Made by a program: the position numbers and the translations under genes. This document shows, piece by piece, positions 7,630 to 40,650 of a stretch of DNA of 64,000 nt. Within the stretch, counting starts at the first letter, position 1. Each line of letters begins with the position of its first letter. The DNA comes from an uncultured Acidobacteriota bacterium (GTDB lineage: Bacteria > Acidobacteriota > Vicinamibacteria > Vicinamibacterales > UBA2999): NCBI GenBank assembly GCA_963734635.1, contig CAVTIA010000014.1, forward strand, positions 720,192 to 784,191. The letters are read 5' to 3'. The notes below the pieces were generated by a model. The model was not told the DNA's origin, ran no database searches, and saw only the letters and a program-made list of their open reading frames with translations.

Positions 7630-8797
7630 TCACGCTGACTGATACAGCTTCGTCAGCACGAACTCGCGATGGCCCATCACCTCGGCGCACGTGAGCCGTC
7701 CGTTGCACGTCCGGACGACCATGTCGATGAGTTGATCGCCCGCCTTGTCGAGCGTCAGCTCGCGTCGCAGGATCCCCGATACGTCAAGATCAATGTGCTC
7801 CACCATCGTCCGCGCCGTCTTCGGGTTCGCGGTGAGCTTGATGACAGGCTCGATCGGGTTGCCGATGACGTTCCCTTGCCCGGTCGGAAAAAGGTGAACG
7901 ACGAAACCGGCCGCGGCCTGAAGCGTGATGCATTCCGCTGCGGCCGACGACGTGTCCATGTAATAGAGCCCGGGGCCTTTCGACGGCGCTTCCGCCGGTT
8001 TGAGCACATCGATGAACTTGCTCTTCCTGCCGATCTTCTGCAGGTTCCCAAACGCTTTTTCCTCGATGGTGGTCAGACCGCCTGCGATGTTGCCCTTGGT
8101 CGGCTGCGATTCCGACAGGTCGCTGGTCTTGTGGCGGTTGATCACCTCCTGGTATGCGTTGAAGACGCTGCATGAACTTGCCACGCACCTCGGGAGTGGC
8201 CGCCCGATCGGCGCACACCATCTCGGCGCCCGTGAGCTCCGAGGTTTCGCCGAAGCAGGTCGTCACGCCCATCGGATCGAGCTTGTCGATCAGATTGCCG
8301 ACCGTCGGACACGACGCGAGCCCTGAAGTGGTGTCGCTCTCTCCACACTTGGTGGAGATGAAAGCTTCTTCGATGGAGCACTTCTCGCGCTGCCGCTCCG
8401 ATGCCCACTGCATCAGTTCGCGCGCCTTGCGCGAGGCGTTGGCAATAGTGGTGATGTCGCCATGTTCTTCGATGGAGAAGCCGGCGACGGGCTTGCCGGT
8501 TTTCGCGATGCCGTCGACAACCCGACCTGTCCAGGACGGCTCGATACCGATGACCACGCAGGCTGCCACATTAGGATTCGACCCCGTACCGATGAGCGTG
8601 CGGAAGAACAACTCGAGATCCTCACCGAACTGCAGCCGACCGTAGGCATGGGGGAGCGCCAACGTGCCCTTGATGTTGTGCGCCACCGCCTCGCACGCGG
8701 CATTCGAAAGGTCATCGAGCGGGAGAATGACTACATGATTACGAACGCCGACGCGCCCGTTTTCGCGTCGGTATCCATAGAATTCGTAGCGTCCCAC
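7630..8797 (-). pseudogene. UxaA-family (altronate/galactarate-type) dehydratase large subunit; apparent 1-nt indel near 8165-8185
   Basis: GTG 8797 lies 1 nt after the small-subunit stop. The N-terminal part ([21 protein letters not shown]...) is in the 7790..8866 frame and the C-terminal part (...[21 protein letters not shown]) in the 7630..8184 frame; 1168 nt = 3n+1. Confidence 0.75.
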
Positions 8798-8798
8798 G

Positions 8799-9083
8799 TC
8801 ACCACCTTTTGGTCTTGAGATTGTGCACGTGCACGTGGCGGCCCTTCGGAATGTCGGCCACGGCACGACCCACGTCGTACCCGTACTTCAGCACCGTGTC
8901 GCCGCTCTTGATGTCCGCCAGCGCGATCTTGTGTCCGAGCGGCACGGTGTCGAGCGCTTTCACGCGGATCGTCTCGTCGGTTTCCATGATCCAGCCGGTC
9001 AGTTCTTTGTTCGGTTGTATGTCTTCCACGACGGCAACGCCGACCGTGTCGGCCTTGTCGTGCACGATGAAATCAGTCGGCAT
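8799..9083 (-). CDS. UxaA-family dehydratase small subunit (SAF domain)
   Basis: 94 aa; [16 protein letters not shown]...[19 protein letters not shown] is typical of the SAF/UxaA N-terminal module. Confidence 0.8.
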
Positions 9084-9227: not shown

Positions 9228-10931
9228 CTAATAGCTAAACACATATACCGCACCCGAGTCGTCCGCGGAGTTGTCGGCCTGATTGCCACCGATGCCTTTC
9301 GATGAGCCATCCTCGTTGTGCGCGCCGACCGCCATGATTCTGCCGTCGGTGCTCAGTGCCACGGCGCTTCCGAACTCGTCGCCCGCCTCCGTGTTGGACC
9401 CCTTCACGTAAGCTCGCTGTGTCCAGGTCGCCCCGCTCCGCGTGTAGAAATACACCGCACCCGATTCCTCCGCCTGCTTGCGCTGCTCGCGCCACGGATC
9501 GAGATGGTCGACGATGAGGAAGGGTTGCGGTTCCGGTGCACGGACGCCCTGGGCCGCATTGTCCTCGAGGTACGCGGTTACGGCGAGCGTGTTGCCGTCG
9601 CCGCTCAGTGCGAGCTTCACACCGAACGAGTTGTACGGACGAGGATTGTTGGCCTTGATGAACGCCTGCTCGGTCCACGTCGTCCCGGATCGCACGAAGA
9701 CGTACGCCGCTCCTACCCAGATGTTTGCAGCGCCGCGAGGTGGTGAATCGTTGTCGCACCCTGGAGGATTGATGCCGGGCGTCAGGCAATCCTCATCACC
9801 GGCGCCCGCCGCTACCGTGTTCCCGTCGTCGCTGATCGCGACGACGTATCCGAGCTGATCGGTGGCTTCGGTGCGGGATCCTTTGATGTATGCCTGCTGC
9901 CTCCATGCGCCATCACTGCGCGCGAACACGTACAACGCGCCGGCGCCGCCAGCGGTGTTGTCGCGCGGACCGTTGATGGTTCGTCCAGAGCCCCGTTCGT
10001 CGAACGCGCTGGTCACGAGCGTGTGGCCGTCAAAGCTCAGAGCTACCGCAAACCCGAGCATATCGCCGGCCTGAAGGTGCGAGCCCTTGAGGTACGCCTG
10101 CTGCGTCCACGAGGCGCCCATCCGGTTGAATACGTACACCGCCCCGGCGGACTGCTGCGAATCGTCGCGCTCGTTGCCGTTTACCTGCTGCGCCGCACCG
10201 TCTTCCGAGATTGCGCCCACGGCGAGTGTGTTGCCGTCGCCGCTCAGCGCCAATGAATAGCCGAACTGATCGCCGTCGCCGGGCACTTCGCCTTCTCCGG
10301 CCCTTCCGGTGTTCGAGGCTTTGATGTACGCCTGTTGCGTCCACGTGCTTCCCGCGCGACTGAAGACGTATACAGCGCCTGCCTGGCGGAGCGAGTTGTC
10401 GTTCTGATCGCCGTTGATTCCGGTTGCCGCGCTCGATTCCCAGGGCGCAGCGACAGCCAGGGTGTTGCCATCCCGGCTCAAGGCCACCGAGGCGCCAAAG
10501 TGATCGCTCTGGTCCGCATTCGAAGCCTTGATATACGCCTGTTGCACCCAGGAGCTGCCCTGGCGGGCGAACATGTACACAGCGCCGGATGCGTAGGCTG
10601 AATTGTCGTTCTGGTTTCCGTTGACGCCTGTCGAGCCACTGCTTTCGTACGGCGCGCCGACAACCATCGTGCTGCCGTCGCCGCTCAGGGCAATCGAATT
10701 GCCATTGTGACCCTGGTTGCCGCCGCCGTCGGCGAAGTAGTCGTAGGCCTCCGCGTTCGATGCCTTGATGTAGGCAGTCTGTTTCAGGGGCAGTAAGGGT
10801 GTCGCGGTTCGCACCTGCGATGATAGATGCCCTTCCGCGACAAGGATGATAGCCAAGGCGATGGCGTGGTGAATGTATCGTTCACGCTTCTGGGTTCTCC
10901 GTTCTCCGTTCGTGTTCAGGTTCGGTTCCAT
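9228..10931 (-). CDS. FG-GAP/integrin-like repeat beta-propeller protein, secreted
   Basis: About 8 repeats of W.QQAYIKASN...D.FG.SVALS.DGNT.AVGA..E.S..G.NGNQ.DNS...GAVYVF. The start is uncertain: the first in-frame ATG (10931) lies inside the palindromic element. Confidence 0.75.
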   Translation of the reverse strand: MEPNLNTNGERRTQKRERYIHHAIALAIILVAEGHLSSQVRTATPLLPLKQTAYIKASNAEAYDYFADGGGNQGHNGNSIALSGDGSTMVVGAPYESSGSTGVNGNQNDNSAYASGAVYMFARQGSSWVQQAYIKASNADQSDHFGASVALSRDGNTLAVAAPWESSAATGINGDQNDNSLRQAGAVYVFSRAGSTWTQQAYIKASNTGRAGEGEVPGDGDQFGYSLALSGDGNTLAVGAISEDGAAQQVNGNERDDSQQSAGAVYVFNRMGASWTQQAYLKGSHLQAGDMLGFAVALSFDGHTLVTSAFDERGSGRTINGPRDNTAGGAGALYVFARSDGAWRQQAYIKGSRTEATDQLGYVVAISDDGNTVAAGAGDEDCLTPGINPPGCDNDSPPRGAANIWVGAAYVFVRSGTTWTEQAFIKANNPRPYNSFGVKLALSGDGNTLAVTAYLEDNAAQGVRAPEPQPFLIVDHLDPWREQRKQAEESGAVYFYTRSGATWTQRAYVKGSNTEAGDEFGSAVALSTDGRIMAVGAHNEDGSSKGIGGNQADNSADDSGAVYVFSY

Positions 10932-11051
10932 GTTCGGGGTTCGAGGTTCGGCGTTCGAGGTTCGCCCCATGAACATGGAACGTTGGAACCTTGAACCCAC
11001 AACCGAACGTGAACACGAACAGAGAAATGTCAGAACCGAGAAGCGTGAACG
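10879..11051. repeat. ORF-less hairpin copy (173 bp) of the 37667..38357 element
   Basis: Termini CGTTCACGCTTCTGGGTTCTC... and ...GAACCGAGAAGCGTGAACG are reverse complements and match the termini of the ORF-bearing element. Confidence 0.7.
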
Positions 11052-11066
11052 ACGCATCATTTGACG

Positions 11067-12758
11067 CTAATACACGAACACATACGCCGCGCCGGAATCG
11101 GCCGCCGAATTGTCGGCCTGATTGCCGTTGATTCCTGTCGCCGCGCTGTCCTCGCCATGGGCGCCGACCACCATCACGTGCCCGTCGGTGCTCAGCGCCA
11201 ATGAGCTTCCGAATTCATCGCCCGCGTCCGCGTTGGCGGCTTTGACCCACGCGCCAGCCGTCCATCTGGTGCCGCTGCGCGTGTAGAAGTACACGGCGCC
11301 GGATTCTTCCGCTTCGTTCCGGTGCTCACGCCAGCCGTTCAGCATGTCCTGAATGAGGAATTGCTGGACCATCGGCGGCCGGATACCACGGCCTCCGTTG
11401 TCCTCGAGGTACGCTGAGATCGCGAGCGTATTCCCGTCGCCGCTCAGGTCGAGCCTGACGCCAAACGAGTTGTACGGCCGTGCGTTGGGCGCCTTGATGA
11501 ATGTCTGCTCCGACCAGGTGGTGCCGTTTCGAACGAACACGTACGCTGCGCCCACCCAGATGTTCGCGCCCCGGTTGGGCGGTGCATCGTCGGCACAGCC
11601 GGGAGGATCGATGCCCGGCGTCAGGCAGGCCTCGTCGCCGGAACCGACGGCGATCGTATTGCCGTCGTCGCTGATGGCCGTCGCAAAACCAAAGCCGTCG
11701 CTGGTTTCACCCTTTGAGCCTTTGATGTACGCCTGTTGGCTCCAGGTTCCGCCCTGACGCGCGAAGACATAGAGCGCGCCGGAATTCTGCGACTCGGTGT
11801 TGTCGGGAGGATTGATTCCCCTGCCGCCACCGTCTTCGTCGAATGCGGCGGCGGCGAGTGTGTTGCCGTCGAAGCTGAGCGCCACCGAAAACCCTAGACC
11901 GTCCCCTGCGCCCATGTTCGCGCTCTTGACGTAGGCCTGCTGCGCCCACGTAGTGCCCGTCCGCGCGTACACGTAAACCGCGCCGGCAGACTGCGCCGAG
12001 TCGTCGCCCTGGTTTCCATTGATCTGTTGCGCCGCGCTGTCTTCGCTGATGGCACCGACCGCCAACGTGTTGCCATCGCCGCTCAGCGTCAGCGAAAAGC
12101 CGAACTGGTCGCCGTCGCCCACGAGCGTGCCTTCGCTAGCCTTCCCCGTGTTGGACGCCTTGATGTAGGCCTGCTGCGTCCAGGTCGTACCGGTACGGGT
12201 GAAGACGTAGACAGCGCCGGACTGCGGGATCGAGTTGTCGTTCTGGTTGCCGTTGACCCCCGTAGCGCCGCTCGCTTCCCAATGGGCGGCAATCGCCATC
12301 GTATTGCCGTCGCGGCTCAGCGCGACCGACGAGCCGAAATGATCACTCTGACCGGGGTTGGAGGCCTTGACGTACGCCTGCTGCGTCCACGAATCGCCCT
12401 GGCGGACATACACGTAGACGGCTCCAGACGCGTAGACGGAGTTATCGCGCTGGTTGCCATTGACCCCGGCGGCGCCGCCGCTCTCGAACGCCGCGCCGAT
12501 GGCCATTGTGGTGCCGTCGCCATTCAGCGCGATCGACGTTCCCGTGTGACCCTGGTTTCCGCCCCCGCACGCGAAATGGTCGTAGGCTTCCGCGTTCGAC
12601 GCCTTGATATACGCCACCTGTTTGAGCGGCAGCACCGGCGGCACTTCCTTGTTCAGCGTCGGCGCCTGCGCAATCAGGTAGCCCGGAATGAAGAGAAGCA
12701 CGACGAGGGCGGCTATTCCGCCGGGATGCCGCATTACACGAGCGCTGATCCGTGACAT
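11067..12758 (-). CDS. FG-GAP/integrin-like repeat beta-propeller protein, secreted
   Basis: ATG 12758 is preceded by AAGGAG that overlaps the upstream TAA. Signal peptide IAALVVLLFIPGYLIAQA; same repeat unit as 9228..10931. Confidence 0.8.
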   Translation of the reverse strand: MSRISARVMRHPGGIAALVVLLFIPGYLIAQAPTLNKEVPPVLPLKQVAYIKASNAEAYDHFACGGGNQGHTGTSIALNGDGTTMAIGAAFESGGAAGVNGNQRDNSVYASGAVYVYVRQGDSWTQQAYVKASNPGQSDHFGSSVALSRDGNTMAIAAHWEASGATGVNGNQNDNSIPQSGAVYVFTRTGTTWTQQAYIKASNTGKASEGTLVGDGDQFGFSLTLSGDGNTLAVGAISEDSAAQQINGNQGDDSAQSAGAVYVYARTGTTWAQQAYVKSANMGAGDGLGFSVALSFDGNTLAAAAFDEDGGGRGINPPDNTESQNSGALYVFARQGGTWSQQAYIKGSKGETSDGFGFATAISDDGNTIAVGSGDEACLTPGIDPPGCADDAPPNRGANIWVGAAYVFVRNGTTWSEQTFIKAPNARPYNSFGVRLDLSGDGNTLAISAYLEDNGGRGIRPPMVQQFLIQDMLNGWREHRNEAEESGAVYFYTRSGTRWTAGAWVKAANADAGDEFGSSLALSTDGHVMVVGAHGEDSAATGINGNQADNSAADSGAAYVFVY

Positions 12759-14701: not shown

Positions 14702-14777
14702 GGTTGTAGGTGGTAGTCGGTAGGTGGTAGTCAGGGTGGCCCGGGCGTTTGACCCGTGTCTCCGTGTCTCCGTGGCC
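14702..14777. repeat. composite word-repeat tract (GGTAGGT/GGTAGTC words, then GTGTCTCCGTG words)
   Basis: GGTTGTAGGTGGTAGTCGGTAGGTGGTAGTC ... GTGTCTCCGTGTCTCCGTGGCC. The word types are shared with 42279..42370 and 7587..7613. Confidence 0.6.
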
Positions 14778-16432
14778 TGTCGCTTGTGGGTCATAGTGTT
14801 GAAAGTTTGAGAACGAGCCATTTTCGTGCAGACCTGCTCGCGGGGGCCACTGTGGCGCTGGTGGGGCTTCCGCAGTGCCTGGCCTACGCGACGATGTCTG
14901 GGCTTCCCCCTGCATACGGGCTTGCGACTGCCGTTGTTCCCGGACTCGTCGCCTCGATCGCCGGGCGGAGCCGCTACGTCATCACCGGCCCGACCAACAC
15001 CACGGGCCTCCTCGTTCTTGCCGCCCTGGTGCCGTTTCTCGGCTCGAACGGGCTGCTGGCGCCGGACGGCCTCGGCCGGCTCGCGACGCTCACCCTGCTC
15101 TGCGGTGTTCTCAGAATCGCCCTGGCGCTGAGTGGGGGAGCCGTCCTCGTTCGATTCATTCCCGAGTCGGTGCTCACAGGCTTCACGATCGGGGTCGGTA
15201 TTCTCATCGGCGTCATGCAGCTCGATGAGGCGCTGGGTCTTCCCGCGGTAAATGGGGCAGGTGGGTGGGACGAATACCGCGGGCTAACATCGCTCGTGGC
15301 GGAGGGCGCGCGCCCGTCGCCTCTTGCCGGCCTCGTGACGCTCGTATCAATCGCCGCGGTCGGGCTCGGTCAACGCATGTGGCGGCGTCTGCCCGCTGCA
15401 CTGATCGTCGTGGCTTCCGCAGCAGCAGCCGCGTGGGCGTTCGGACTCGATGCCAGGTTTGGATTACCTCTCGTCAGCGACCGCACGGCCGTGCCAGGCG
15501 GGTGGCCGACGGGTGCGCTGCCCGATTTGCGCCCGACCGTGATCGCAAGCCTGCTGGTGCCGTCGGCGGCGATCGTGCTCCTCGGCACCCTCGAGCTGCT
15601 CGTCAGCGTACGGGCGGATGATTCGCGACCCCACGTCCCGCGTGAGATCCTGGCGCAGGGATGGGCGAACGTCGCGGGCAGCGTCGCCGCTGCGTTTCCG
15701 GCGTCGGCGAGCCTGACGCGCTCGGCCCTGCTGCGGTTTGCGCGTCCGCACAGTCGTGCTGCGGCCGCGTTTGCGGCGCTTCTCACGCTGCCCGTGCTGC
15801 TGTTTGGCTCCCGACTGATTGCGTATATTCCCCAGGCGACCCTGGCGGGTGTTCTGATCGTCATTGCGGCCGGTATGGTGCGGCAGCCGACGGTCGGACG
15901 CGTCTGGAGAGCGTCCCCCGTGAGCCGCCTGCTGCTTGGCACCACAGCGGTCAGCACGCTCGTGCTGCCGCTTGCATGGGCGGTGTTCGTTGGCGCGGGC
16001 CTGGGCCTGCTTATTCATTTGGCCAGAACGAGCGCACCGCGGGTCCGCGCCCTGACCTTCAAAGACGATCGGCTTGTGCCCGTTGACGATGGACAGAATC
16101 CATCGGTCGTCGTGCTCGAGGTATCTGGCGCCGTTCACTACGCCGCCGTGGAGCCGCTGCTCGAGGACGCCGAACGGCATCTGCCGTCCGCCGTAGCCCT
16201 TGTCATTGTCGATCTCTCATACGCGCACGAGCTGCGGTTTACCGGCGTGCGCGCCCTCGAATGGTGGGCCGCCGATCTCGAACGTCGCGGCATTCGGCTG
16301 CGCATCGCTGGCGTGACGCCAGAGGTGCGCGACTTGTTCGAAGGCAGCGACAGTCAGCTCGCGTACACGATGTGGGAACCCGAGCCGGGGCGCAGCGCGT
16401 GGAAGTGTTTTCGTGAGGCGGGTGGGGAGTGA
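14756..16432 (+). CDS. SulP-family anion transporter with C-terminal STAS domain
   Basis: RADLLAGATVALVGLPQCLAYA is the SulP N-terminal signature, followed by multiple TM segments and a STAS-like tail. The real start may be GTG 14786 or TTG 14807, because 14756 lies in a repeat. Confidence 0.8.
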   Translation: MSPCLRGLSLVGHSVESLRTSHFRADLLAGATVALVGLPQCLAYATMSGLPPAYGLATAVVPGLVASIAGRSRYVITGPTNTTGLLVLAALVPFLGSNGLLAPDGLGRLATLTLLCGVLRIALALSGGAVLVRFIPESVLTGFTIGVGILIGVMQLDEALGLPAVNGAGGWDEYRGLTSLVAEGARPSPLAGLVTLVSIAAVGLGQRMWRRLPAALIVVASAAAAAWAFGLDARFGLPLVSDRTAVPGGWPTGALPDLRPTVIASLLVPSAAIVLLGTLELLVSVRADDSRPHVPREILAQGWANVAGSVAAAFPASASLTRSALLRFARPHSRAAAAFAALLTLPVLLFGSRLIAYIPQATLAGVLIVIAAGMVRQPTVGRVWRASPVSRLLLGTTAVSTLVLPLAWAVFVGAGLGLLIHLARTSAPRVRALTFKDDRLVPVDDGQNPSVVVLEVSGAVHYAAVEPLLEDAERHLPSAVALVIVDLSYAHELRFTGVRALEWWAADLERRGIRLRIAGVTPEVRDLFEGSDSQLAYTMWEPEPGRSAWKCFREAGGE

Positions 16433-16897
16433 CGTGATCGAACGGGACATCGTGGTCGTCGGCGCCGGTCCAGTAGGTCTCACTGCCGCGTTGGCGGTGC
16501 GCGCAACTGGTCGACCCGTGACGGTCGTTGACGCAGGCGCCCGCGATCGCGTCAGGCCCGGCAGCCGCGCCATCTTCCTGCACCGCGTCACCCTGGAGCT
16601 CCTCGAGGACATCCGCAGCGGTCTCGGTGCTGAGCTCGTACGACGCGGTCTGGTATGGCGCACGAAGCGGACGCTTTACCGTGGGCGTGAGGTGTACCGG
16701 CGAACTACAAGCCGGTTGCGGCGGGAATTTAACTCGGTGCGAGCACATGGCCTCCTGCTTTCCGGAGGCCCGTCGCGGCAGTGGCCGAATGAGCCTCTGC
16801 CCGAGTGACGCGAGAAGCGACGGGAACCTTGCTCATGGCCTTGACGGTGTACGGTCGAAGCGACAAGATGGCGTGTCTGAAGCCAGTGAGCGCGCCC

Positions 16898-17455
16898 ATG
16901 CACGACTTGACGGCGCTGCTGAATGCCTGGAGCGCAGGCGATCCTTCCGCCCGCGACCAGCTCATGACGGTCGTGTATCAGGAGCTGCGCCGGCGGGCGG
17001 CGGGGCAGCTGCGCGGCGAACGCCGCGGGCACACGCTGCAGCCGACGGCCCTCGTGCACGAGGCCTATCTGCGGCTGGTCGATCAGCGGCGGATCGTGTG
17101 GCAGAACCGCGGGCAGTTCTTCGGGGTCGCGTGTCAGATGATGCGGCGCATCCTGGTCGATCGGGCCCGCGCGCATCGCATGGCAAAGCGATCGGGGCAA
17201 TGGGCACGCGTCACCCTTGACGAGGCGGTAAGGTCGACGCCGCCGGTCGACGTCGACGTGCTCGATCTCGACGCCGCGCTCACACGACTGGCGGCCTTCG
17301 ATCCCCGGAAGAGTCAGCTCGCTGAGCTCCGATTCTTCGGAGGCCTGTCACTCCAAGAGGCCGGCGAGGTCGTCGGCATCTCCATGGCAACCGCCGAACG
17401 GGACTGGCAGGCGGCGCGAGCGTGGCTGCTCAAGGAGCTGCGGGGTGAGGACAGG
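16898..17455 (+). CDS. ECF-type RNA polymerase sigma factor (kinase-associated, TIGR02999/ECF43-like)
   Basis: LLNAWSAGDPSARDQLMTVVYQELRRRA, HTLQPTALVHEAYLRL and region 4 LSLQEAGEVVGISMATAERDW. There is no stop before the kinase ATG at 17456. Confidence 0.8.
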
Positions 17456-17738
17456 ATGACACCTGAGCGCTGGCGGCGGGTAACCGAGGTGTTCCATGCG
17501 GCGCGGTCGCACGACGCAGCGACCCGTGCGCAATACCTCGATCAGGCCTGTGCTGGTGACCGCGCCCTCCGCGACGAAGTCGGCGCGATGCTGGCCGCAG
17601 AATCCGACGCCGGGCAATTTGGTGAAAGCCCCGTGCATGTTTCCACCGACCGCGTGCGACGGCTCGAATCCGGCACGATGGTCGGTTCGTACCGCATCGA
17701 CAGGTTGATTGGCGCCGGTGGCATGGGGGAGGTCTATG
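17456..17738 (+). pseudogene. 5' stub of a Ser/Thr protein kinase gene, truncated in the glycine loop
   Basis: MTPERWRRVTEVFHAA...YRIDRLIGAGGMGEVY, after which the sequence becomes the monooxygenase C-terminal part in another phase. Confidence 0.75.
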
Positions 17739-18724
17739 CCTTCGGCGACGAACCTGCCTCAAGTCGTTACGGAAGCCGTGCTGCTGCAGGCGTGCATGGA
17801 CACTGGCGTCGAGTTTGTCTGGAACGCGGAGTTCGTAACTGCAAGGGCTGACGATCGCAACGTTGTTCTTGACACCATTGACGGGCGCCGTATCAGCGCC
17901 CGCTATGTGATCGGCGCGGACGGTGCGCGTTCAGTCGTGCGCGAGTCAACGGGGCTGCGTCTCGAGGGGCCACGAACGTCGAACGCTTACGTAATCGTCG
18001 ACGTTGCCGAAGATCCTGTCGCGCCGCTCCCGCTCGAGCGCGTGTTTCATTACGAGCATCCGCAGGTTGGATTTCGTAATGTGCTGTTCGTCCCGTTTGC
18101 GGGTCACTGGCGCGTCGATTTGCAGTGTCATCCTGACGACGACCCGGACGAGTACAGCTCTGATGCGGGCGTACGCGATTGGCTGGCGCGCGTGATGCCC
18201 GCGAAGTACGCGGATCGCGTGACATGGGTGTCGTCCTATGTCTTTCGACAGGCGATCGCAAGCTCGTTCGCCGACGAAACCCGACGTGTGCTGCTGGTGG
18301 GAGAGGCCGCGCATCTGTTTGCGCCGTTTGGCGCGCGTGGCCTCAATTCAGGCGTCGCCGACGCGGTGATGGCGGCGCGGGCGATAGATTCGGCCCTGCG
18401 TGCTGAAAGGCCCGCCGCTGCGGCCGCGTCTGTCGACGAGTTTGCGGTCGCCCGCCGCGCGGCAGCCGCTCGCAACCGGGCGGCCTCATCTGCCGCGCTC
18501 GCCCACCTGCAAGCCGCCTCACCGGCCCGGCGCCGGCTGCGCCGCGCAGCTGCCAGAGTGGCGCCGTTTGTGACCTCGGCGGGCCGCTGGCTCGACCGAG
18601 CGCCATTCGGACCCCGGCTCGGCGAGCCGGATCGCTATGGAATGCACTACTAGAGCAACCGGACGCATCGGCGCGTCAGGGCGACTGAGCGTCGCGATCG
18701 GCAAAAACGCCGCAGGCAACCTTT

Positions 18725-18837
18725 CGTTCACACTTCTGTGTTCTCCATTCTCTGTTCGTGTTCACGTTCGGTTCGAAGTTCGAGGCGCGGTCGAACCTGA
18801 ACACGAACCGAGAAGTGAGAACCAGGAAGCGTGAACG
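18725..18837. repeat. ORF-less hairpin copy (113 bp) of the 37667..38357 element
   Basis: The left arm CGTTCACACTTCTGTGTTCTCCATTCTCTGTTCGTGTTCACGTTCG and the reverse complement of the right arm agree at most positions by eye. Confidence 0.75.
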
Positions 18838-18843
18838 TCGGTC

Positions 18844-20153
18844 TCAAAACCTCCGATTGATCCAAGCGGCCGCGTAGTCGTAGAAATTCTTCACCGTGTT
18901 CGAGTACTGCCCCGGTACGGATTCGCAGGACACGCACGGTGTTTGGCCATGTTCAGCACCCTCAACGACTACGAAGTCCTTGTCGGAGCTGGCGGCGAGC
19001 TCATAGTGGATCTCGTTATCACGGACGAAATAATGCGCGCCCATCGCGGCTACCAGCAGCGGCACGCGGATCTTTGGCAAATGACACGGAGGGGAATTGT
19101 TGCTCGAGCAGTGGTCAATTCGATCCATGGAGTCGGTCGCCCGAATGGCGTTCGCGCTCAAGAACGACTTGATGGTCAGGAGAGCCGTCCCGTTCGCGAA
19201 TGAGACATTCTCTTGCGCCAGCTGCGGAGCCGCGCGACGAACGCTTTCCACGATTTGCGTCACCACTGTTCCGTCATTCTTGAGTAACTTTCGCGGCTTG
19301 GCTGTGCTGTGGTGGACGCTCAGATCGAGTTGCATCAGGCGGCCACCGACTCCCCTGGGAACCACGAAGGCGTCATCGTCCGGGTACAGGTATTTCGCGT
19401 CCTTCATTCGGGTCTGCCTGTCCATCGCCAGATCGATCAACCTGTTCATCCGCTCCGCCTGTGCCTTGAAGTACTTGGTCTTGAACTCTTCGCTATAGGA
19501 GGACGGTCCCTTAGGGTTGTACCCGTTCCTGGGATTGAATGGATCCAGACTCGGATCGAGTTGATCTGGCCGACTTTCGTTTGTAACAGCAGGATTGAGG
19601 CTCCTGAGTGCATTGACAGGGTTGCCTGGATGCGCGTCGACCAGAATCAGGCCATCGGCTGGAGCCAGCCCGCCAAGCTCATTCCCGCACTGCACAAGCT
19701 TCTCAGGTCCGCGGCACACGGACGGTCCGTTTTCGGCGACGCTCTCATAGAACGTCATCGTCGCGCCACCGCCGCTCCAGCCCCAGAGAATGATCTTCGT
19801 GATTCCCGGCTGTTTCTTGAGAAACTGCACGCCCGCGCTGACGTCCAGCGGGATGGTCTCGAACCGGACCAGCGCCTCGTTGTTGTCCGACCTGGGGTTC
19901 ATGCACAAGACCGCAAATCCCCTTCTGGACAGCTCTGTGCAGGCGAGTGCGCCCATGAAGTTCGATGTCCGGTGCATGACGAGGATGGCAACGTGAGGCA
20001 CAGGGTCCGCGGCATCAGGCAAGTAGAACGCGCCCTTCACGGACGCGGGCACGCCGGGGAATCGGATGTACCGCGGGTTGCTCTGCGCGACTGCAGGCCA
20101 GCGATAAGACCGAGACTTGCAAGGGCAATCGACGCACGTGCTGTCCAATTCAT
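18844..20153 (-). pseudogene. secreted alpha/beta hydrolase; apparent 1-nt deletion near 20090 separates the signal peptide from the body
   Basis: ATG 20153 gives MNWTARASIALASLGLIAGL, then the frame shifts into ...AVAQSNPRYIRFPG of the 18844..20148 ORF. GWSGGG is the nucleophile elbow. Confidence 0.65.
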
Positions 20154-20997: not shown

Positions 20998-23262
20998 TCA
21001 GCGCCCGTCACCGCCGGGCAGTTTCAGCCGTGTCAGCAGCGCCGGAAACCCGGGATGCGCGCGGATCGCGTCGTATTCCGGGTCACAACCGAGCCGCCCG
21101 AGGAACCCGTTGCCATCGCTGATACCGCGATTGAGCCACTCGATCGCCTCGTCCGTGCGATTCATGCCGACCAGTACACGTCCGCCACCCAGCAGGGTGC
21201 GATGTATTCGGTGTCACTGCGCGTCAGCAGTTCCTGCAGCGCGCGTTCGGCGTCGGCGGTCCGCCCGGCCCGGGCGTACGCGAAGCCGAGCGTCGAGACG
21301 AGCACCGGCTGGCGATCGCCCACGCTGACCGCGCGTTCCGCGGTGACGACCGCCTCGTCGCTGCGCCCGCTGGCGGCCTGGAAAAGCGCCCTGATCCAGT
21401 GCGGGAACGCGGCCTCGCGCTCGAACTCGAGGGAGAGTCGTGTATAGCGATCCGCGCGCTCGAAGTCGCGACTCCAGTACGCGACGCCGCCCGCAAGGTA
21501 GGCGATCACGGCGGAATCAGGCTCCAGCGCCACGGCAGCGTCCGCGGCGCGCACCGCGTCGTCCGGGCGCCCGACGCACGCCCAGAGCAGCCCGAGATAG
21601 GCCTGGCTCACCGCAAGCTTCGGATTGAGCGCGAGGGCGCGCTGATAGCCGGCTTCGGCGGCGGCGTAATCGTTCCGGATCCACTGGGCGGTGGCCCCGA
21701 CGCTGTGGTGCGCTTCGGCCAGCGAGGGGTCGAGCGCCAGGGCGCGATCGGCTGCGGCGATGGCGAGCGGCCCGAGTTCCCGGCCGGGCCGCACACCGTA
21801 AATGGCCATCACCGTATAGCAGTCGGCGATGCCGGCGTGCGCGAGCGCATAATCGGGATCGGCGGCCGCCGCCTTCTCGAAACACTCGAGCGCGGTCCGC
21901 AGGTGCCACCGGTTGCGTCGGGCCCAGTGGTACCGGCCCTTGAGGCAGAGCGCGTAGGCCTCGGGGTTGTCGGTGGCCTTCCGCACGAGTGGCGTGTCAC
22001 TGCCGCGCGTCAGTTTCACGCGGAGGCGTTCGGCGACGGTGCGGGCGATCTCGTCCTGCACGGCGAAGACATCGTCGAGGTCGCGGTCGTAGCGCTCCGT
22101 CCACAGCTCATATCCGTCGCCCACGTTGGTGAGCTGCGCCGTGATGCGCACGCGGTTCCCGGCCTTGCGGACGCTGCCCTCGACGACGTGCTGGACGTTC
22201 AACCGCTGACCAATCTCCGCGATGTCCAGCCCCTTCTCATGGCAACGCATCGCGGAGGTCCGGGAGGCGACCTGCAACGCGCCCAGCGCCGAGAGCGCAG
22301 TGATGATTTCGTCGGCGATGCCCTCGCAGAAGTACTGCTGATCGCCGGCGGGGCTCGAGATCCTTGAACGGCAGCACGGCGAGCGACGGCAGGGCCCTGG
22401 CGGCCGGGTGGTGACCGCCGCTCGACTGCCGCGCGCGCAGGATGGCGCGAAGCTCGTCGACGATGTCTCTTGCATGCTGGGGCCTCGCTTCAGGCGCCTT
22501 GGACACGGTCCGCGCGATCAGACGCTCGAGTCCGGAGGGGAGGTTCGCCACGAAGCCCCGTAGCGGCACGTCTTTGTTGAGAATCGCGTCGAAGATGACG
22601 GCAGTCGTGCTCCCGGCAAACGCCGGACGGCCGCTCAGCATCTCGTAGAGCACGAGCCCGAACGAGAAGATGTCGCTCCGCCCGTCCACCACGTCCCCTC
22701 GCGCCTGCTCCGGCGACATGTAGGCCACGGTGCCGAGCACGTCGCCGGCAACGGTCAAGCCTGCCTGGGTGACATCCACGGGAACGTCGGTCCGCTTCGC
22801 GAGGCCGAAGTCGAGTACTTTCGCGTGGCCGGCCGGGGTCACGATGATGTTGGCCGGCTTCAGATCGCGGTGCACGACGCCGCCGGCGTGCGCCGCATGC
22901 AGCGCGTCCGCGATCTCGATGGCCAGCGCCAACGCCTCGTCCAGCGGCATCGGGCGGCCGGCGATGCGCGCCGCGAGGGTGTCGCCATCGACGAGTTCCA
23001 TGGCGATGAAGTGCCGGCCGTCGACTTCGCCGACATCGTAAACCGTGCAGATGTTCGGATGATTGAGCGCGGCCGCGGCCCGCGCCTCGCGGCGCAGCCG
23101 TTCGGCGGAGCTCGGCCCCCGGCCATCCTCGGGAAGGAACTTCAGTGCTACGGGTCGATCGAGGCGGACGTCGATTGCGCGATACACGACGCCCATGCCG
23201 CCAGCGCCCAGTGGAGCAACGATCTGGTAGACGCCGAGACGCGTGCCGGGGAGAAGGCTCAC
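20998..23262 (-). pseudogene. Ser/Thr protein kinase with C-terminal TPR region; two apparent frame breaks (near 22355 and near 21175)
   Basis: [16 protein letters not shown] and [19 protein letters not shown]|[17 protein letters not shown] continues in the 21162..22475 frame. The tail MNRTDEAIEWLNRGI...DPEYDAIRAHPGFPALLTRLKL is in a third frame, ending at TGA 20998. Confidence 0.75.
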
Positions 23263-31432: not shown

Positions 31433-34099
<2,667 letters not shown>

Positions 34100-34440: not shown

Positions 34441-34464
34441 CACACGTGTGAACTGAGAACGCGT

Positions 34465-34645
34465 CGTTCACACTTCTCGGTTCTGCGTTCTCAGTTCCTG
34501 TTCACGTTCGGTTCGGTCCGGTCCGGCGAAGCCGAACACTACGAACTGCCGGTCGCACGCGCACCTGAACAAGCGAACTCAGAACGCGAACTCTGAACCG
34601 AACCTGAAGCACGAACCGAGCACCGGGAACGTAGAAGTGTGAACG
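34465..34645. repeat. ORF-less hairpin copy (181 bp) of the 37667..38357 element
   Basis: Termini CGTTCACACTTCTCGGTTCTGCGTTCTCAG... and ...GGAACGTAGAAGTGTGAACG. An extra partial terminus CGTTCACACGTGTGAAC lies at 34437..34453. Confidence 0.7.
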
Positions 34646-34664
34646 ACGACGAGGCGTTCAGCGT

Positions 34665-36978: not shown

Positions 36979-37673
36979 CCGACACCCCAGGCGGTCAGGA
37001 TTAGCTCCGGATCCTGCGCGTCGCGCTCGATCTTCCGGCGCAGCCTGCTGATGACCGTGTCCACGGTGCGTTCGGTCACGTAGGTGTCGTCGCTCCAGAC
37101 GTTCTGGAGCAGCGCTGCCCGGCTGAAGACGATCCCTGGCCTGCGGGCGAGCTGATACAGGAGGTCGAACTCCTGGCGGGTCAACTCGATCGGGGCGCCG
37201 CGTACGATCGCTTCGCGCCGCTCCGGGTCGAGCTGCACGTTCGCGGCCGACGTGCGCTTCCGCGCCGGGGCCGGGCTGTCGTCGTCACGGGCGTGCCGCC
37301 GTGTGATGGCGTTGACGCGTGCGATGAGCTCGCGGATGCCGAAGGGCTTGGTGAGGTAGTCGTCTGCACCGCTTTCGAGCCCCAACACCTTGTCAGATTC
37401 CGTGTCGCGCGCGGTCAGCATCAGGATTGGGGTGCTGACGTTCGGTCCGCCCGTCCGGATCGCGCGGCACAGCGAGACTCCGTCCAGGCCCGGCAGCATG
37501 ACGTCGAGAATCACGAGGTTGTACGCGCTCTCGCGAAGGCGGCGCAGCGCCTCGCGACCGTCGGCGGACTCTTCGACTTCGAACCCGGCGAGCTCGAGGT
37601 GCAGGCGCAGCAGATCACGTACGGGAAGCTCGTCCTCGACGACGAGGGCGCGGCGCGAAAAGCCGTCGTTCAC
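36954..37673 (-). CDS. OmpR-family response regulator
   Basis: ALVVEDE...ILDVMLPGLDG receiver domain plus winged helix TVDTVISRLRRKIE...TAWGVGYKF. The GTG start lies within the element terminus. Confidence 0.9.
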   Translation of the reverse strand: MNDGFSRRALVVEDELPVRDLLRLHLELAGFEVEESADGREALRRLRESAYNLVILDVMLPGLDGVSLCRAIRTGGPNVSTPILMLTARDTESDKVLGLESGADDYLTKPFGIRELIARVNAITRRHARDDDSPAPARKRTSAANVQLDPERREAIVRGAPIELTRQEFDLLYQLARRPGIVFSRAALLQNVWSDDTYVTERTVDTVISRLRRKIERDAQDPELILTAWGVGYKFVDVE

Positions 37674-38357
37674 ACTTCTCAGCTTCTCCGTTCTCAGTTC
37701 GTGTTCACGTTCAGTTCCGGCGTTCAGAGTTCACCTTTCCGAGGTTCGACGTTCTTGCACCTGCATTCGCGCAAGCCGTGCAAATTCTGCGTACCTGACC
37801 CGAATAGGCGAGCAATCATGGCCTGAAGACCTTGGCACTCGGCGTGCTCCGTTGCGCACCATGGGCGTACACCGATTCACGGAACTACGCGCCTGGCAGG
37901 CCTGCAACGTTTACAAGAATGCAGTCTATCGACTCTGCGAGCAAGGATCGCTCTCGACAGACTGGAAGCGTCGAGGACAGCTCGAAGATTCGGTATCTGG
38001 TCCACCCGGACACATCGCCGAAGGGTTCGGCAGATTCAACCCGGCCGACTTTGCACGCTTCGCCGTAATCGCGCGGTCGTCGCTCATGGAATCGCAGAAT
38101 CATCTGCGAGACGCGGTCGATAAGGGCTACATCACCGAAGACATTCGCCTCGAACACGACAAGCTTGCCGAGGCCGCTCTCGAGGAGGTCACCGGACTGC
38201 TGGAGTACCTTCAGTCTCCCGAGGCGCTGCGAAACGCTCGCCGCGCCCGTGAACGCCGCATCGCGTCAAGATCCGAACGCCGAACCAAGAACCCGAACAA
38301 CGAACCAGAACCGAACCTGAACACGAACCGAGAAGCGAGAACCGAGAAGAGTGAACG
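37667..38357. mobile_element. 691-bp element bounded by about 50-nt imperfect inverted repeats and carrying a four-helix-bundle (23S-IVS-type) gene
   Basis: The left arm starts CGTTCACACTTCTC and the right arm ends GAGAAGAGTGAACG. The arms are reverse complements, and the same termini bound ORF-less copies at 10879, 18725 and 34465. Confidence 0.6.
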
Positions 38358-38361
38358 ATAG
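37861..38361 (+). CDS. four-helix-bundle protein (23S rRNA intervening-sequence protein family)
   Basis: FTELRAWQACNVYKNAVYRL...GHIAEGFGRFNPADFARFAVIARSSLMESQNHLRDA is typical of the family. The last ~35 codons are arm-encoded low complexity. Confidence 0.75.
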   Translation: MGVHRFTELRAWQACNVYKNAVYRLCEQGSLSTDWKRRGQLEDSVSGPPGHIAEGFGRFNPADFARFAVIARSSLMESQNHLRDAVDKGYITEDIRLEHDKLAEAALEEVTGLLEYLQSPEALRNARRARERRIASRSERRTKNPNNEPEPNLNTNREARTEKSER

Positions 38362-38367
38362 TTTGCT

Positions 38368-40650
38368 TTACCGCGTCGCCGTCGCCGCCGTCGTCACTCT
38401 GACCGGCTGCACCATGGCGCCGTTGCCCGCCGTGTCCCATGCGGCAAATCGGACCCACTTCTTGCCCGTGGCGTCGAACGGAATCTCGAAGCGCTTCCGG
38501 CCAAGCGGCGCGAGCTCTGTGGCGGGGATGATCTGGCGATCGATCTTGGCGCCGTCGCCCCACACGACCTCGACGAACTCGAGCGGGAACGTCCATTCGA
38601 GATCGGCCACGATCGTGCGCTTGGCTCCTGCACCCTGCACCGCGTAGTTGGATATGAGCACTTCGCCCGACGTCCAGAAGTAGTCGCCACGCTTGACCGA
38701 ATCGATGATCGAGTCCCAATTGCCGCTGCTTGCGAGCGGGAGGGTGTCGAGCTTCACGTACTGCACCGGGCTGTTGGCGTAGAAGTCGTCGCCCGGCCCC
38801 TGCTCGTACGTTTCGGTGATCGCCTGGATGTATTTGAGCTGGCCCGGCTTGTCGGCCATCCAGTTGTTCATCTCGTCCAACAGCGTCTGGCAGCGGATCT
38901 CGCACAGGCGCTGCTCAGAGCCGTCGAGGCCCATGCCCCATCGGACGCCGATGCCGCGGTAGTTGTCGTCGATGAAGTAGCCGCGATCCTTGATGGCGTC
39001 CGGATAACCTGTCGACCCCTTTGATCGGGGATGCGGCATGAAGATCAGCAGGTTCTCGCGGCGGACCATCTCCATCATCTCGTCAGGTCCGGCGATTCGA
39101 TAGACCTTGCCGTATGTCGGGTGATTCTCGACGAACGGCTGATCCGGCTTGCGATCCGGCAGCCAGTAGACCGGCTTGGAGACCAGCAGATCGTTGTGGC
39201 CGCCGATGCCCCCAGCCGCCCCTTCTTCGTTCGGCATAATCAGAAAGTTCTTGTCCGAATGGCGTCTCGCGACTTCGTAGTAATCGGCGAGCGTCTTGAG
39301 ACGGTCTTCGCGCGGAAGACCAAAGCCAAGCCCGCTGCCGTCAATGGGCGCGAAGATATTGACGCCCGCCGCCTTGACGACGTCGAAGTCGTGAAGGCGT
39401 ACGTCGAGGCTGCCACCCTGTCGTCGCAACCGGCCCACCAGCGCTGAGTGAAAGTGGGTGGCCATCACCTGATAGCCTGGCAGCGGTTTGAACTTGTCGT
39501 CGCGGGTAAATGCCAGCGCTCCCCTGGCCGCGCCATCGGCGGGCGTAGCGCTCACGTACAAGTAGACCGGCATCCGCTGCCACGTGCCCGGCCGCGCGCT
39601 GCGCAGCGCGAAGTTCTGCCGCGTGTCCTCTGCACCGCGACCCATGTCCTCGGGGCTCGATTCCGCTTCCGGCTGTCTGACGCCGAACGAATAGCTCGAC
39701 GCGCCGTCCTTGCGGTAGTAGACGTAGCCCTGGTTGAACGAGACCTCGCGCGACCAGAAGAAGTTGTGAGGCGGCGGGAACGCGGCAATCGAGCCCGCGG
39801 CTCCTTCGGCGACGACGAGCCGGTTCTGCGCGCGGAGCGGCACGATGTCAGTGTTCTGTGCACCACCGAATCGGTAGTCCTGCCAGATGTTCGACACGTC
39901 GCGCCACGCGACGCGCGACGCCGCGTCGATTCGCAGCCCCTTGAGTCCGCCTTCGTACTTGTAAGCTACCGAGTCGACGTCGGTCTTGGCGATTACCTCC
40001 TGCTCGATGAGGTTGGTGCCTCGGTAGATCGAGTATTGCAGGCGGCCATTGAACACTCCAAGCTGCACTCCGTCGAAGCTGACCTCCAGGCGCGCTCCAT
40101 TCGTCTTGACGTCGCAGCCGCGCGCGGCATAGGCGGCGGTCGCGCGCTTGATCTCCTCCGGTTTTCGCGGGAGGGCCGGCTGATCGAGAAGCCCCTTCGG
40201 GGGAGGAATCGCATTCATCCGCGTGTTTTCGAGCGGCTCTGTATTGAGCGGCGCGTCCCAGAAGGCGTCCCACTTGATGCTGTCGATCAACTCCTTCGTC
40301 AGTTCGACCTTCAGGCCGCGCAGCGGCTGGAGCTGCTGCTCGGTGACCCGGCGGACACCGCTGACCACGCGGTAATCCGGCGTGACACCCGTAGCGACGA
40401 CCTTCCAGTCCCCCCGCTGCGGCCGCACGGCGAGCTCCGCGATCGTCGGAACTCCGCTCATCACGGTCATCCGCAGTCTGACCTGTTGTCCGGAGTCGCC
40501 GTCCCATGTGACCGTCAGCGCATCGTTTGCAACGGTGGCGGTCAGGCCGGGAGCTGGACGGTAGTCGCTCAGATTGCAGGTGAGCGGATCTGCGGATGCC
40601 GCAGCAGACGTGAACAGCAGCATGGCGACTGTCGCGAAGGGTGCTCTCAT
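38368..40650 (-). CDS. large secreted hypothetical protein (760 aa)
   Basis: Signal peptide MRAPFATVAMLLFTSAAASA; long uninterrupted ORF with coding-like composition; no motif I can name. Confidence 0.6.
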   Translation of the reverse strand: MRAPFATVAMLLFTSAAASADPLTCNLSDYRPAPGLTATVANDALTVTWDGDSGQQVRLRMTVMSGVPTIAELAVRPQRGDWKVVATGVTPDYRVVSGVRRVTEQQLQPLRGLKVELTKELIDSIKWDAFWDAPLNTEPLENTRMNAIPPPKGLLDQPALPRKPEEIKRATAAYAARGCDVKTNGARLEVSFDGVQLGVFNGRLQYSIYRGTNLIEQEVIAKTDVDSVAYKYEGGLKGLRIDAASRVAWRDVSNIWQDYRFGGAQNTDIVPLRAQNRLVVAEGAAGSIAAFPPPHNFFWSREVSFNQGYVYYRKDGASSYSFGVRQPEAESSPEDMGRGAEDTRQNFALRSARPGTWQRMPVYLYVSATPADGAARGALAFTRDDKFKPLPGYQVMATHFHSALVGRLRRQGGSLDVRLHDFDVVKAAGVNIFAPIDGSGLGFGLPREDRLKTLADYYEVARRHSDKNFLIMPNEEGAAGGIGGHNDLLVSKPVYWLPDRKPDQPFVENHPTYGKVYRIAGPDEMMEMVRRENLLIFMPHPRSKGSTGYPDAIKDRGYFIDDNYRGIGVRWGMGLDGSEQRLCEIRCQTLLDEMNNWMADKPGQLKYIQAITETYEQGPGDDFYANSPVQYVKLDTLPLASSGNWDSIIDSVKRGDYFWTSGEVLISNYAVQGAGAKRTIVADLEWTFPLEFVEVVWGDGAKIDRQIIPATELAPLGRKRFEIPFDATGKKWVRFAAWDTAGNGAMVQPVRVTTAATATR

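Follow-up and report, generated by a model that had tools for sequence, protein, structure and literature searches.

In a stretch of 64,000 nucleotides from an uncultured Acidobacteriota bacterium of the Vicinamibacterales (the window), a gene for an FAD monooxygenase is broken in two by about 1 kb of DNA carrying an ECF sigma gene and the beginning of a Ser/Thr kinase gene. The question is where exactly this DNA begins and ends, where it came from, and by what process it entered the monooxygenase gene, if it is not a product of sequencing or assembly.

The interrupted monooxygenase gene

The monooxygenase gene lies directly behind a SulP/STAS sulfate-permease gene, an ORF at 14756..16432 on the + strand whose homologues in three related contigs (L001, L031 and L032), with PF00916 and PF01740, abut their monooxygenase genes in the same layout. 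Three + strand ORFs were found in the region, at 16413/16434-16808, 16805-17851 and 17709-18653. The 5' part of the monooxygenase gene (16434..16730, +) starts with GTG at 16434, carries GAGPVG, comprises codons 1-99 and the first base of Leu codon 100, and matches positions 3-75 of the PF01494 (FAD_binding_3) profile. The 3' part (17737..18653, +) consists of the last two bases of that Leu codon, codons 101-404 and the stop at 18653; it carries GADGARS and GEAAH...GARGLNSGVADA and matches profile positions 90-330. The pieces scored 37.4 and 117.6 bits, and 155.9 bits when joined, all beyond the family cut-off of 22, so that the first-pass annotation, which had described a split FAD monooxygenase gene at 16434-18653, was right on both pieces. 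The gene encodes the GxGxxG, DG and G(D/E)AAH motifs, as do those of group A flavoprotein monooxygenases (PF01494, p-hydroxybenzoate hydroxylase fold); unlike these, it is interrupted and frameshifted and has no full-length product. The nearest NCBIfam subfamily is NF006002 (PRK08132 FAD-dependent oxidoreductase), for which the joined sequence scored 204.1 bits, below the curated cut-off of 416.

The profile coordinates leave about 7-14 positions uncovered between the two pieces, which gave the first hint that the seamless join proposed earlier is too short. In that reconstruction, REVY was followed directly by PSATNLPQ in an ORF of 392 codons, taken to be of normal length. With this 392-aa sequence as query, hundreds of orthologues of 403-405 aa, with identities up to about 90%, were retrieved from Vicinamibacterales and from Acidobacteriota metagenomes. 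Alignment showed that every intact orthologue has 12 residues, RRTYKxPAxxxL, separating REVY from PSATNLPQ; the reconstruction is thus 12 codons short of every orthologue, and the comparison that had been suggested as a check on precise excision refutes it. In fact, the window retains these codons past 16697, reading CGG CGA AC- TAC AAG CCG GTT GCG GCG GGA ATT. Compared with L001, L002, L031, L032 and L009, it has lost one nucleotide at 16705/16706, where CGAAC[G/A]TACAAG of the relatives has become CGAACTACAAG. This deletion shifts the frame, and the family resemblance therefore appears to end after 16697.

When repaired, the monooxygenase shares 75-92% identity with ten orthologues aligned to it, of which nine seem to be intact, at 403-411 aa, and intact 404-aa orthologues are found in L001, L031 and L032 in the same SulP-monooxygenase layout. 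In the window, an uninterrupted ORF of about 400 codons is replaced by two parts split by 1,006 nt and by the frameshift at 16705/6, with a stop in the host frame at 16806, as the first-pass annotation had correctly noted. The product would run into an out-of-frame tail after 91 native residues, and the FAD-binding fold is missing from the 3' part. The gene is dead, a pseudogene of the PF01494 family.

Boundaries of the inserted fragment

The boundaries of the insert were set by BLAST of the window against related contigs. Positions 14808-16729 are collinear with L001 8396-10318 and positions 17739-18641 with L002 10115-11005, the latter part being aligned by L001 as well. Positions 16731-17736 are collinear with L002 6103-7109 at 92.0% identity, and L003, L004, L005 and L007 match them at 89.5%. 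The end points 16731 and 17736 were identical against six contigs (L002 and L003-L007) wherever the contig reaches, and L008 supports the right end point, 17736, only. The inserted fragment (16731..17736, +) is therefore 1,006 nt long and contains a leader, the ECF sigma gene and kinase codons 1-94, collinear with the relatives. The left boundary lies at 16730/16731 rather than at 16697/16698, and the 1,041 nt first attributed to the insert are the sum of these 1,006 nt and the 35 bases that are left of the 12 hidden codons. The two monooxygenase parts do lie in the same phase, as first reported, but only by accident, through the combination of 1,006 inserted nucleotides and a separate 1-nt deletion.

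The target site in orthologues reads GGGAATT-CTN-CCTTCGG, with CTA, CTC and CTT among the Leu codons and CTG in four of seven. The window reads GGGAATT-T, the insert, and TG-CCTTCGG, placing the break between bases 1 and 2 of Leu codon 100; the TG at 17737-17738 agrees with the CTG codon of L009, L012, L031 and L032. The two junctions coincide at one nucleotide of the target, which neither lost a base nor had one duplicated, save for at most one C>T change. The bases flanking the segment in the donor (G on the left, C on the right) differ from those of the target, leaving a microhomology of 0-1 nt.

The first-pass annotation had proposed an in-frame cassette of 1,041 bp (16698-17738), inserted at a 9-nt microhomology that encodes E-V-Y in each gene. 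Both genes do encode E-V-Y near the junctions, and the common phase of the monooxygenase parts spoke for the model. However, the two 9-mers match at only seven of nine positions and lie 33 nt from the true left junction. At least seven of nine positions of GAGGTGTAC are matched at 189 places in the window, and GAGGTCTAT recurs at 31505, in a kinase unrelated to this one, as part of the glycine loop. The pair is a coincidence, reflecting the conserved GEVY of kinase glycine loops. Furthermore, the 12 orthologue codons between EVY and PSATNL are kept in the window, in shifted frame, at 16698-16730, and donor homology begins only at 16731, which makes such a cassette extremely improbable. The sole evidence for the microhomology-mediated insertion or template switching then suggested is thereby lost, as the corrected junctions have only 0-1 nt common to both sides, unlike those by which MMEJ, FoSTeS and MMBIR are recognized.

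A mobile element, intron or intein is an equally remote explanation, in agreement with the first-pass annotation, which had discounted an IS, an intron and an intein. Insertion without target duplication is known in some element families. However, the segment is continuous with the operon flanks on both sides in six relatives, and its right end falls inside a kinase codon. Neither terminal inverted repeats nor flanking direct repeats were found at 16731/17736; Pfam revealed no transposase, reverse-transcriptase or Hint/intein domain in the region, and an Rfam scan of it gave no match at E<=1 save a spurious miRNA hairpin downstream. Of the features of an IS, MITE or transposon, terminal repeats, target duplication, transposase and multiple copies with the same ends are all missing, as are, for an intron or intein, a ribozyme structure and an open host frame. 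An IS200/IS605-like element, considered for a subterminal hairpin, was rejected on the same continuity of the segment with its flanks in relatives. No second copy or donor of the insert is present in the 64-kb window; a kinase-PD40 gene at 31433 was considered and rejected, being only a 70% paralogue with no sigma gene upstream.

Content of the insert

The fragment begins with the leader of the sigma gene (16731..16885, +), which has a hairpin at 16749-16770 and a block at about 16816-16865 conserved in L003; over the alignment with L003, 137 of 165 columns are identical (83%). The conserved block may be a promoter, and a sigma-70 scan of the leader found no promoter. Capture of a cDNA, in which the fragment start would correspond to a transcription start, was rejected, as more than 80 nt of the fragment precede the promoter-like block and a reverse transcriptase was not seen.

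The ECF sigma gene (16886..17466, +), which begins with a GTG corresponding to the start in its relatives, is of the TIGR02999/PF07638 type. It scored 212.8 bits against TIGR02999 (cut-off 126.15; profile 2-182 of 183), encompassing the full ECF sigma domain, and matched PF07638 with an E-value of 6e-55 (profile 1-184 of 185). The 5' stub of the Ser/Thr kinase gene (17456..17736, +) encodes an N-terminal extension and the glycine loop GAGGMGEVY; homology stops within codon 94, and the kinase in relatives goes on with ...GEVYRAHDTT. The insert thus has the content first described, a sigma gene followed by 94 kinase codons ending in GAGGMGEVY. In relatives the sigma protein has 193 aa and its gene overlaps the kinase gene by 11 nt. 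In the window a C present in all four aligned relatives is missing between 17449 and 17450, and restoring it yields a sigma stop, TGA, at 17464-17466. Due to this loss the normal stop is gone and the sigma is fused to the kinase stub, giving a chimeric ORF (16805..17851, +) made of the sigma, the kinase stub and 37 out-of-frame monooxygenase codons. The source assembly has this ORF annotated from ATG 16835 as a protein of 338 aa (P0121, 100% identical).

Differences between the insert and its relatives lie mainly at third codon positions, as they do in the monooxygenase parts. In the sigma gene they are distributed 9/4/26 over the three codon positions, with 26 synonymous versus 11 non-synonymous codons. 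This bias indicates that what was copied was a functional gene, and fairly recently, with little neutral decay since then.

Sigma factors of the ECF class encoded beside Ser/Thr kinases are thought to need phosphorylation by these kinases, as for EcfP/PknT and EcfK/PknS of ECF43, a group characterized by the lack of a DAED motif in sigma-2.2 (PMC8999054). The inserted sigma resembles ECF43 in its TIGR02999/PF07638 type, in the 11-nt overlap with the kinase gene seen in relatives and, judged by eye only, in a sigma-2.2 region, HTLQPTALVHEAY, without the acidic DAED motif. Unlike ECF43, the window copy has no kinase catalytic domain and, as assembled, no stop codon of its own; 94 kinase codons stand here against a full adjacent kinase in L002-L008. 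Because of the presumed need for a partner kinase, the orphan sigma copy is probably inactive, unless another kinase serves it.

The locus in related strains

Three layouts of the locus were observed. In type 2, seen in L002 and, for its left half, in L003-L006, the SulP gene is followed by a REP-like repeat, the sigma gene, the kinase-PD40 gene and then the monooxygenase gene, adding 4.4 kb between SulP and monooxygenase; the segment of L002 matching the insert sits 3-4 kb upstream of the target site. Only the last kinase-PD40 codons are left upstream of the monooxygenase gene in L009, which is a deletion derivative of type 2. In type 1, to which the window, L001, L031 and L032 belong, the SulP stop is only 1 nt away from the start of the monooxygenase gene behind it. 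Since the junction sequence is the same in all four, it represents an older deletion inherited by the clade, from which the upstream operon had disappeared before the members became about 10% divergent. The window is accordingly a type-1 genome that at a later time took up 1 kb from the type-2 segment, at a site 300 nt downstream from the type-2 location. The monooxygenase gene is also a mosaic among strains, the window being nearest to L009 around 18000-18250, which indicates that recombination between strains occurs at the locus. A recombination tract abutting the insert was considered and rejected, as no tract ends at a junction. Origins in several steps from a type-2 ancestor, either by tandem duplication and two deletions or by reintegration of a circle, were rejected as unparsimonious, because the two junctions coincide at one target nucleotide and the SulP|monooxygenase junction of type 1 is old in the clade.

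Replicative template switching of the FoSTeS/MMBIR kind could have generated the structure if a 3' end stalled at codon 100 had jumped to the operon, copied 1 kb and returned. The template would have been either a copy of the operon close by or a donor strand, contributed by a type-2 strain, that had paired. The position of the L002 segment 3-4 kb upstream of the target would explain the locality of the event, error-prone synthesis could yield a nearby 1-nt deletion, and the locus is mosaic among strains. Such switching is, however, normally primed by microhomology, of which there is none at either junction, and a local template requires an extra assumption, as the clade had lost the operon before the divergence of about 10%. 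Template switching is therefore doubtful.

Uniqueness of the junctions

The chimeric ORF and both junction k-mers were found in one assembly only; neither 241 million metagenome records nor the GTDB representative genomes contain them, the exact junction k-mers having been looked for in GTDB genomes and JGI metagenomes. P0121 forms a single-member cluster from one contig of 1,237,736 bp, and exact-protein look-ups of the window genes returned records only for P0121 and an 888-aa kinase, each from one 1.24-Mb contig. The 94-aa kinase stub as query gave a best match of 90% identity, the short matches being genuine kinases cut short rather than the chimera. The donor searches returned no copy with a nucleotide identity of about 95% or more, and a search for a genome of the same species found none, the best monooxygenase match being 79%. 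Two 1-nt deletions specific to the window (16705/6 and 17449/50) lie within 750 nt, and the other comparable sequence against L001, about 13 kb, has one indel, a dehydratase gene being split by an additional G at 8167. This local excess of indels fits the decay of a pseudogene, and equally a stretch with few supporting reads.

These observations raise the concern of an artefact, either a chimeric or aberrant long read or a co-assembly of strains with and without the operon. In its favour are the single occurrence across all databases searched, the local enrichment of 1-nt indels (16705/6 and 17449/50, compared with the one at 8167 in about 13 kb), and the nature of the donor, a strain-variable segment of the same locus, as a mixture of strains would supply. 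The source contig of 1.24 Mb is presumably metagenomic and built from long reads, to judge by its size and by the long-read MAG contigs related to it. On the other hand, the junctions have no sequence in common, so that a k-mer or overlap-graph misjoin cannot form them, and a graph-type assembly chimera is unlikely. A chimera formed by ligation or in silico would have one breakpoint and would not return to the exact target nucleotide, and the D|B and B|E adjacencies exist in neither the type-1 nor the type-2 layout. An artefact of sequencing or assembly is thus rather unlikely, and the chances that the insertion really took place in vivo are put at about three in four.

Origin of the insertion

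Based on the finding that both junctions occupy the same target nucleotide, which fits one concerted insertion at one break, a model is favoured in which a linear dsDNA fragment of 1,006 bp was ligated into a double-strand break at Leu codon 100, most likely by an NHEJ-type reaction (probability roughly 0.55). The flush junctions, their lack of more than 0-1 nt of microhomology and the single target position are those of NHEJ-type capture. In this model, a double-strand break would have opened inside Leu codon 100 of the monooxygenase gene, and a linear fragment with the leader, the ECF sigma gene and the first 94 kinase codons would have been ligated in by non-homologous end joining. The fragment stems from an orthologue of the operon found between the SulP and monooxygenase genes in sister strains, the donor presumably being a strain, or an ectopic copy, that still had the operon. 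The insertion would have destroyed the monooxygenase and left an orphan sigma copy without its kinase, and the two 1-nt deletions would either have accumulated afterwards or be local consensus errors.

Several points stand against end-joining capture. Only a single assembly carries the junctions, and the clustering of the two 1-nt deletions at the insert could signal thin read support rather than decay. Moreover, capture of a random fragment leaves unexplained why the donor is the target's own neighbour in sister strains. Among the 20 window ORFs scanned outside the locus, in 64 kb of a 1.24-Mb contig, no Ku or LigD was found.

The identity of the donor would be explained by a possible, still tentative route in which DNA of a type-2 strain paired with the chromosome via the SulP and monooxygenase flanks and a piece of the non-homologous 4.4-kb sigma-kinase segment was then joined flush to a break close by. 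Pairing of a type-2 donor at the locus through homologous flanks would be the most economical idea for how a neighbour of the target came to be captured.

Comparison with known processes

Events of template switching or MMBIR and of illegitimate transformation typically show 3-8 nt of microhomology, and recipient DNA is often deleted. Homology-facilitated and double illegitimate recombination have reportedly been seen during natural transformation of Acinetobacter baylyi. The event in the window resembles these in that non-mobile DNA entered a gene illegitimately and in that a related-strain donor acting through flanking homology is possible; it differs in its microhomology of 0-1 nt and in the loss of no recipient base.

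The closest parallel to end-joining capture comes from experiments in Sinorhizobium meliloti, where heterologous DNA entered a broken chromosome in an NHEJ-dependent manner (Dupuy et al., NAR 2019, PMC6379672). Common to Ku/LigD-type capture in S. meliloti and to the window are a linear fragment non-homologous to the target, a single break with flush or near-flush junctions, no target duplication and no machinery encoded by an element. In contrast to that experiment, the window event is natural and unselected and is deduced from one assembly. Its junctions are perfectly clean, whereas S. meliloti inserts sometimes have a small deletion at the insert end (PMC6379672), and its captured DNA is a strain-variable neighbour of the target instead of arbitrary DNA.

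Significance

For databases, the 338-aa "sigma" protein is a chimera, and the monooxygenase gene is to be annotated as a pseudogene. A gene broken by an illegitimate insertion of non-mobile DNA is an ordinary pseudogene, and the event is a new example of an already known kind of process that opens no new biological question. Homology-independent insertion has been demonstrated in the laboratory and has rarely been recorded base by base in the wild. If reads confirm the junctions, the window would offer a clean natural instance in which non-mobile DNA was inserted independently of homology, in an uncultured soil Acidobacteriota of the Vicinamibacterales, and would also illustrate the reshuffling of a strain-variable locus; if pairing through the flanks did bring in the donor, homology would have guided the delivery in the wild, and the integration after it would have been independent of homology.

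Disrupted and intact reading frames around the monooxygenase gene

The GD_AH-type dehydratase gene on the minus strand (about 7633-8887) is split into two frames at 8167, where the window carries one G more than L001, a relative contig in which, as in the window, the SulP gene stops 1 nt before the monooxygenase start. The L001 counterpart is intact, encodes 388 aa, and shares 97-98% identity with the window on either side of the extra G. The extra G is thus a frameshift of very recent date or else an error in the consensus. The region 21162-23262, also on the minus strand, holds a Pkinase ORF (22237-23262) and, in another frame, a TPR ORF (21162-22475) that shares 239 nt with it; together the two look like a single kinase-TPR gene broken by a frameshift. 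An intact gene for a Ser/Thr kinase with PD40 beta-propeller repeats, 888 aa in length, lies on the plus strand at 31433-34099; its architecture is that of the kinase of the donor sigma-kinase operon, while nucleotide identity between the two is only about 70%, and no sigma gene lies upstream of it.

REP-like repeats

A REP-like unit of ~50 nt that shows a GTTC periodicity (CGTTCACACTTCTCGGTTCTCCGTTCTCnGTTCGTGTTCACGTTCGGTTC) is arranged in inverted pairs in intergenic DNA of the window, at 10874-11058, 18720-18845, 34460-34652, 37660-37722 and 38304-38370. For the pair directly 3' of the monooxygenase stop, folding gives a long hairpin of -67.7 kcal/mol (z = -5.1). This ~50-nt unit is also present behind the SulP stop in three relatives: L002, which has the sigma-kinase operon between the SulP gene and the monooxygenase gene; L003, which shows the left half of that arrangement; and L009, a deletion derivative of it.

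Mosaicism of the monooxygenase gene

In L002, the monooxygenase gene (10001-11098 of that contig) has frameshifts of its own, one of them from a single nucleotide inserted some 25 nt upstream of the position that corresponds to the window's insertion site, and the kinase-PD40 gene has frameshifts too. The contig is noisy, and its gene calls are therefore not reliable at face value.

In the 3' part of the monooxygenase gene, the window tract at about 18000-18250 shares 90-95% identity with L009, against only 80-88% with L002, L001 and two further contigs of the L001 arrangement (L031 and L032), all four of which are alike among themselves there. The monooxygenase gene is a mosaic, and this pattern points to inter-strain recombination within it.
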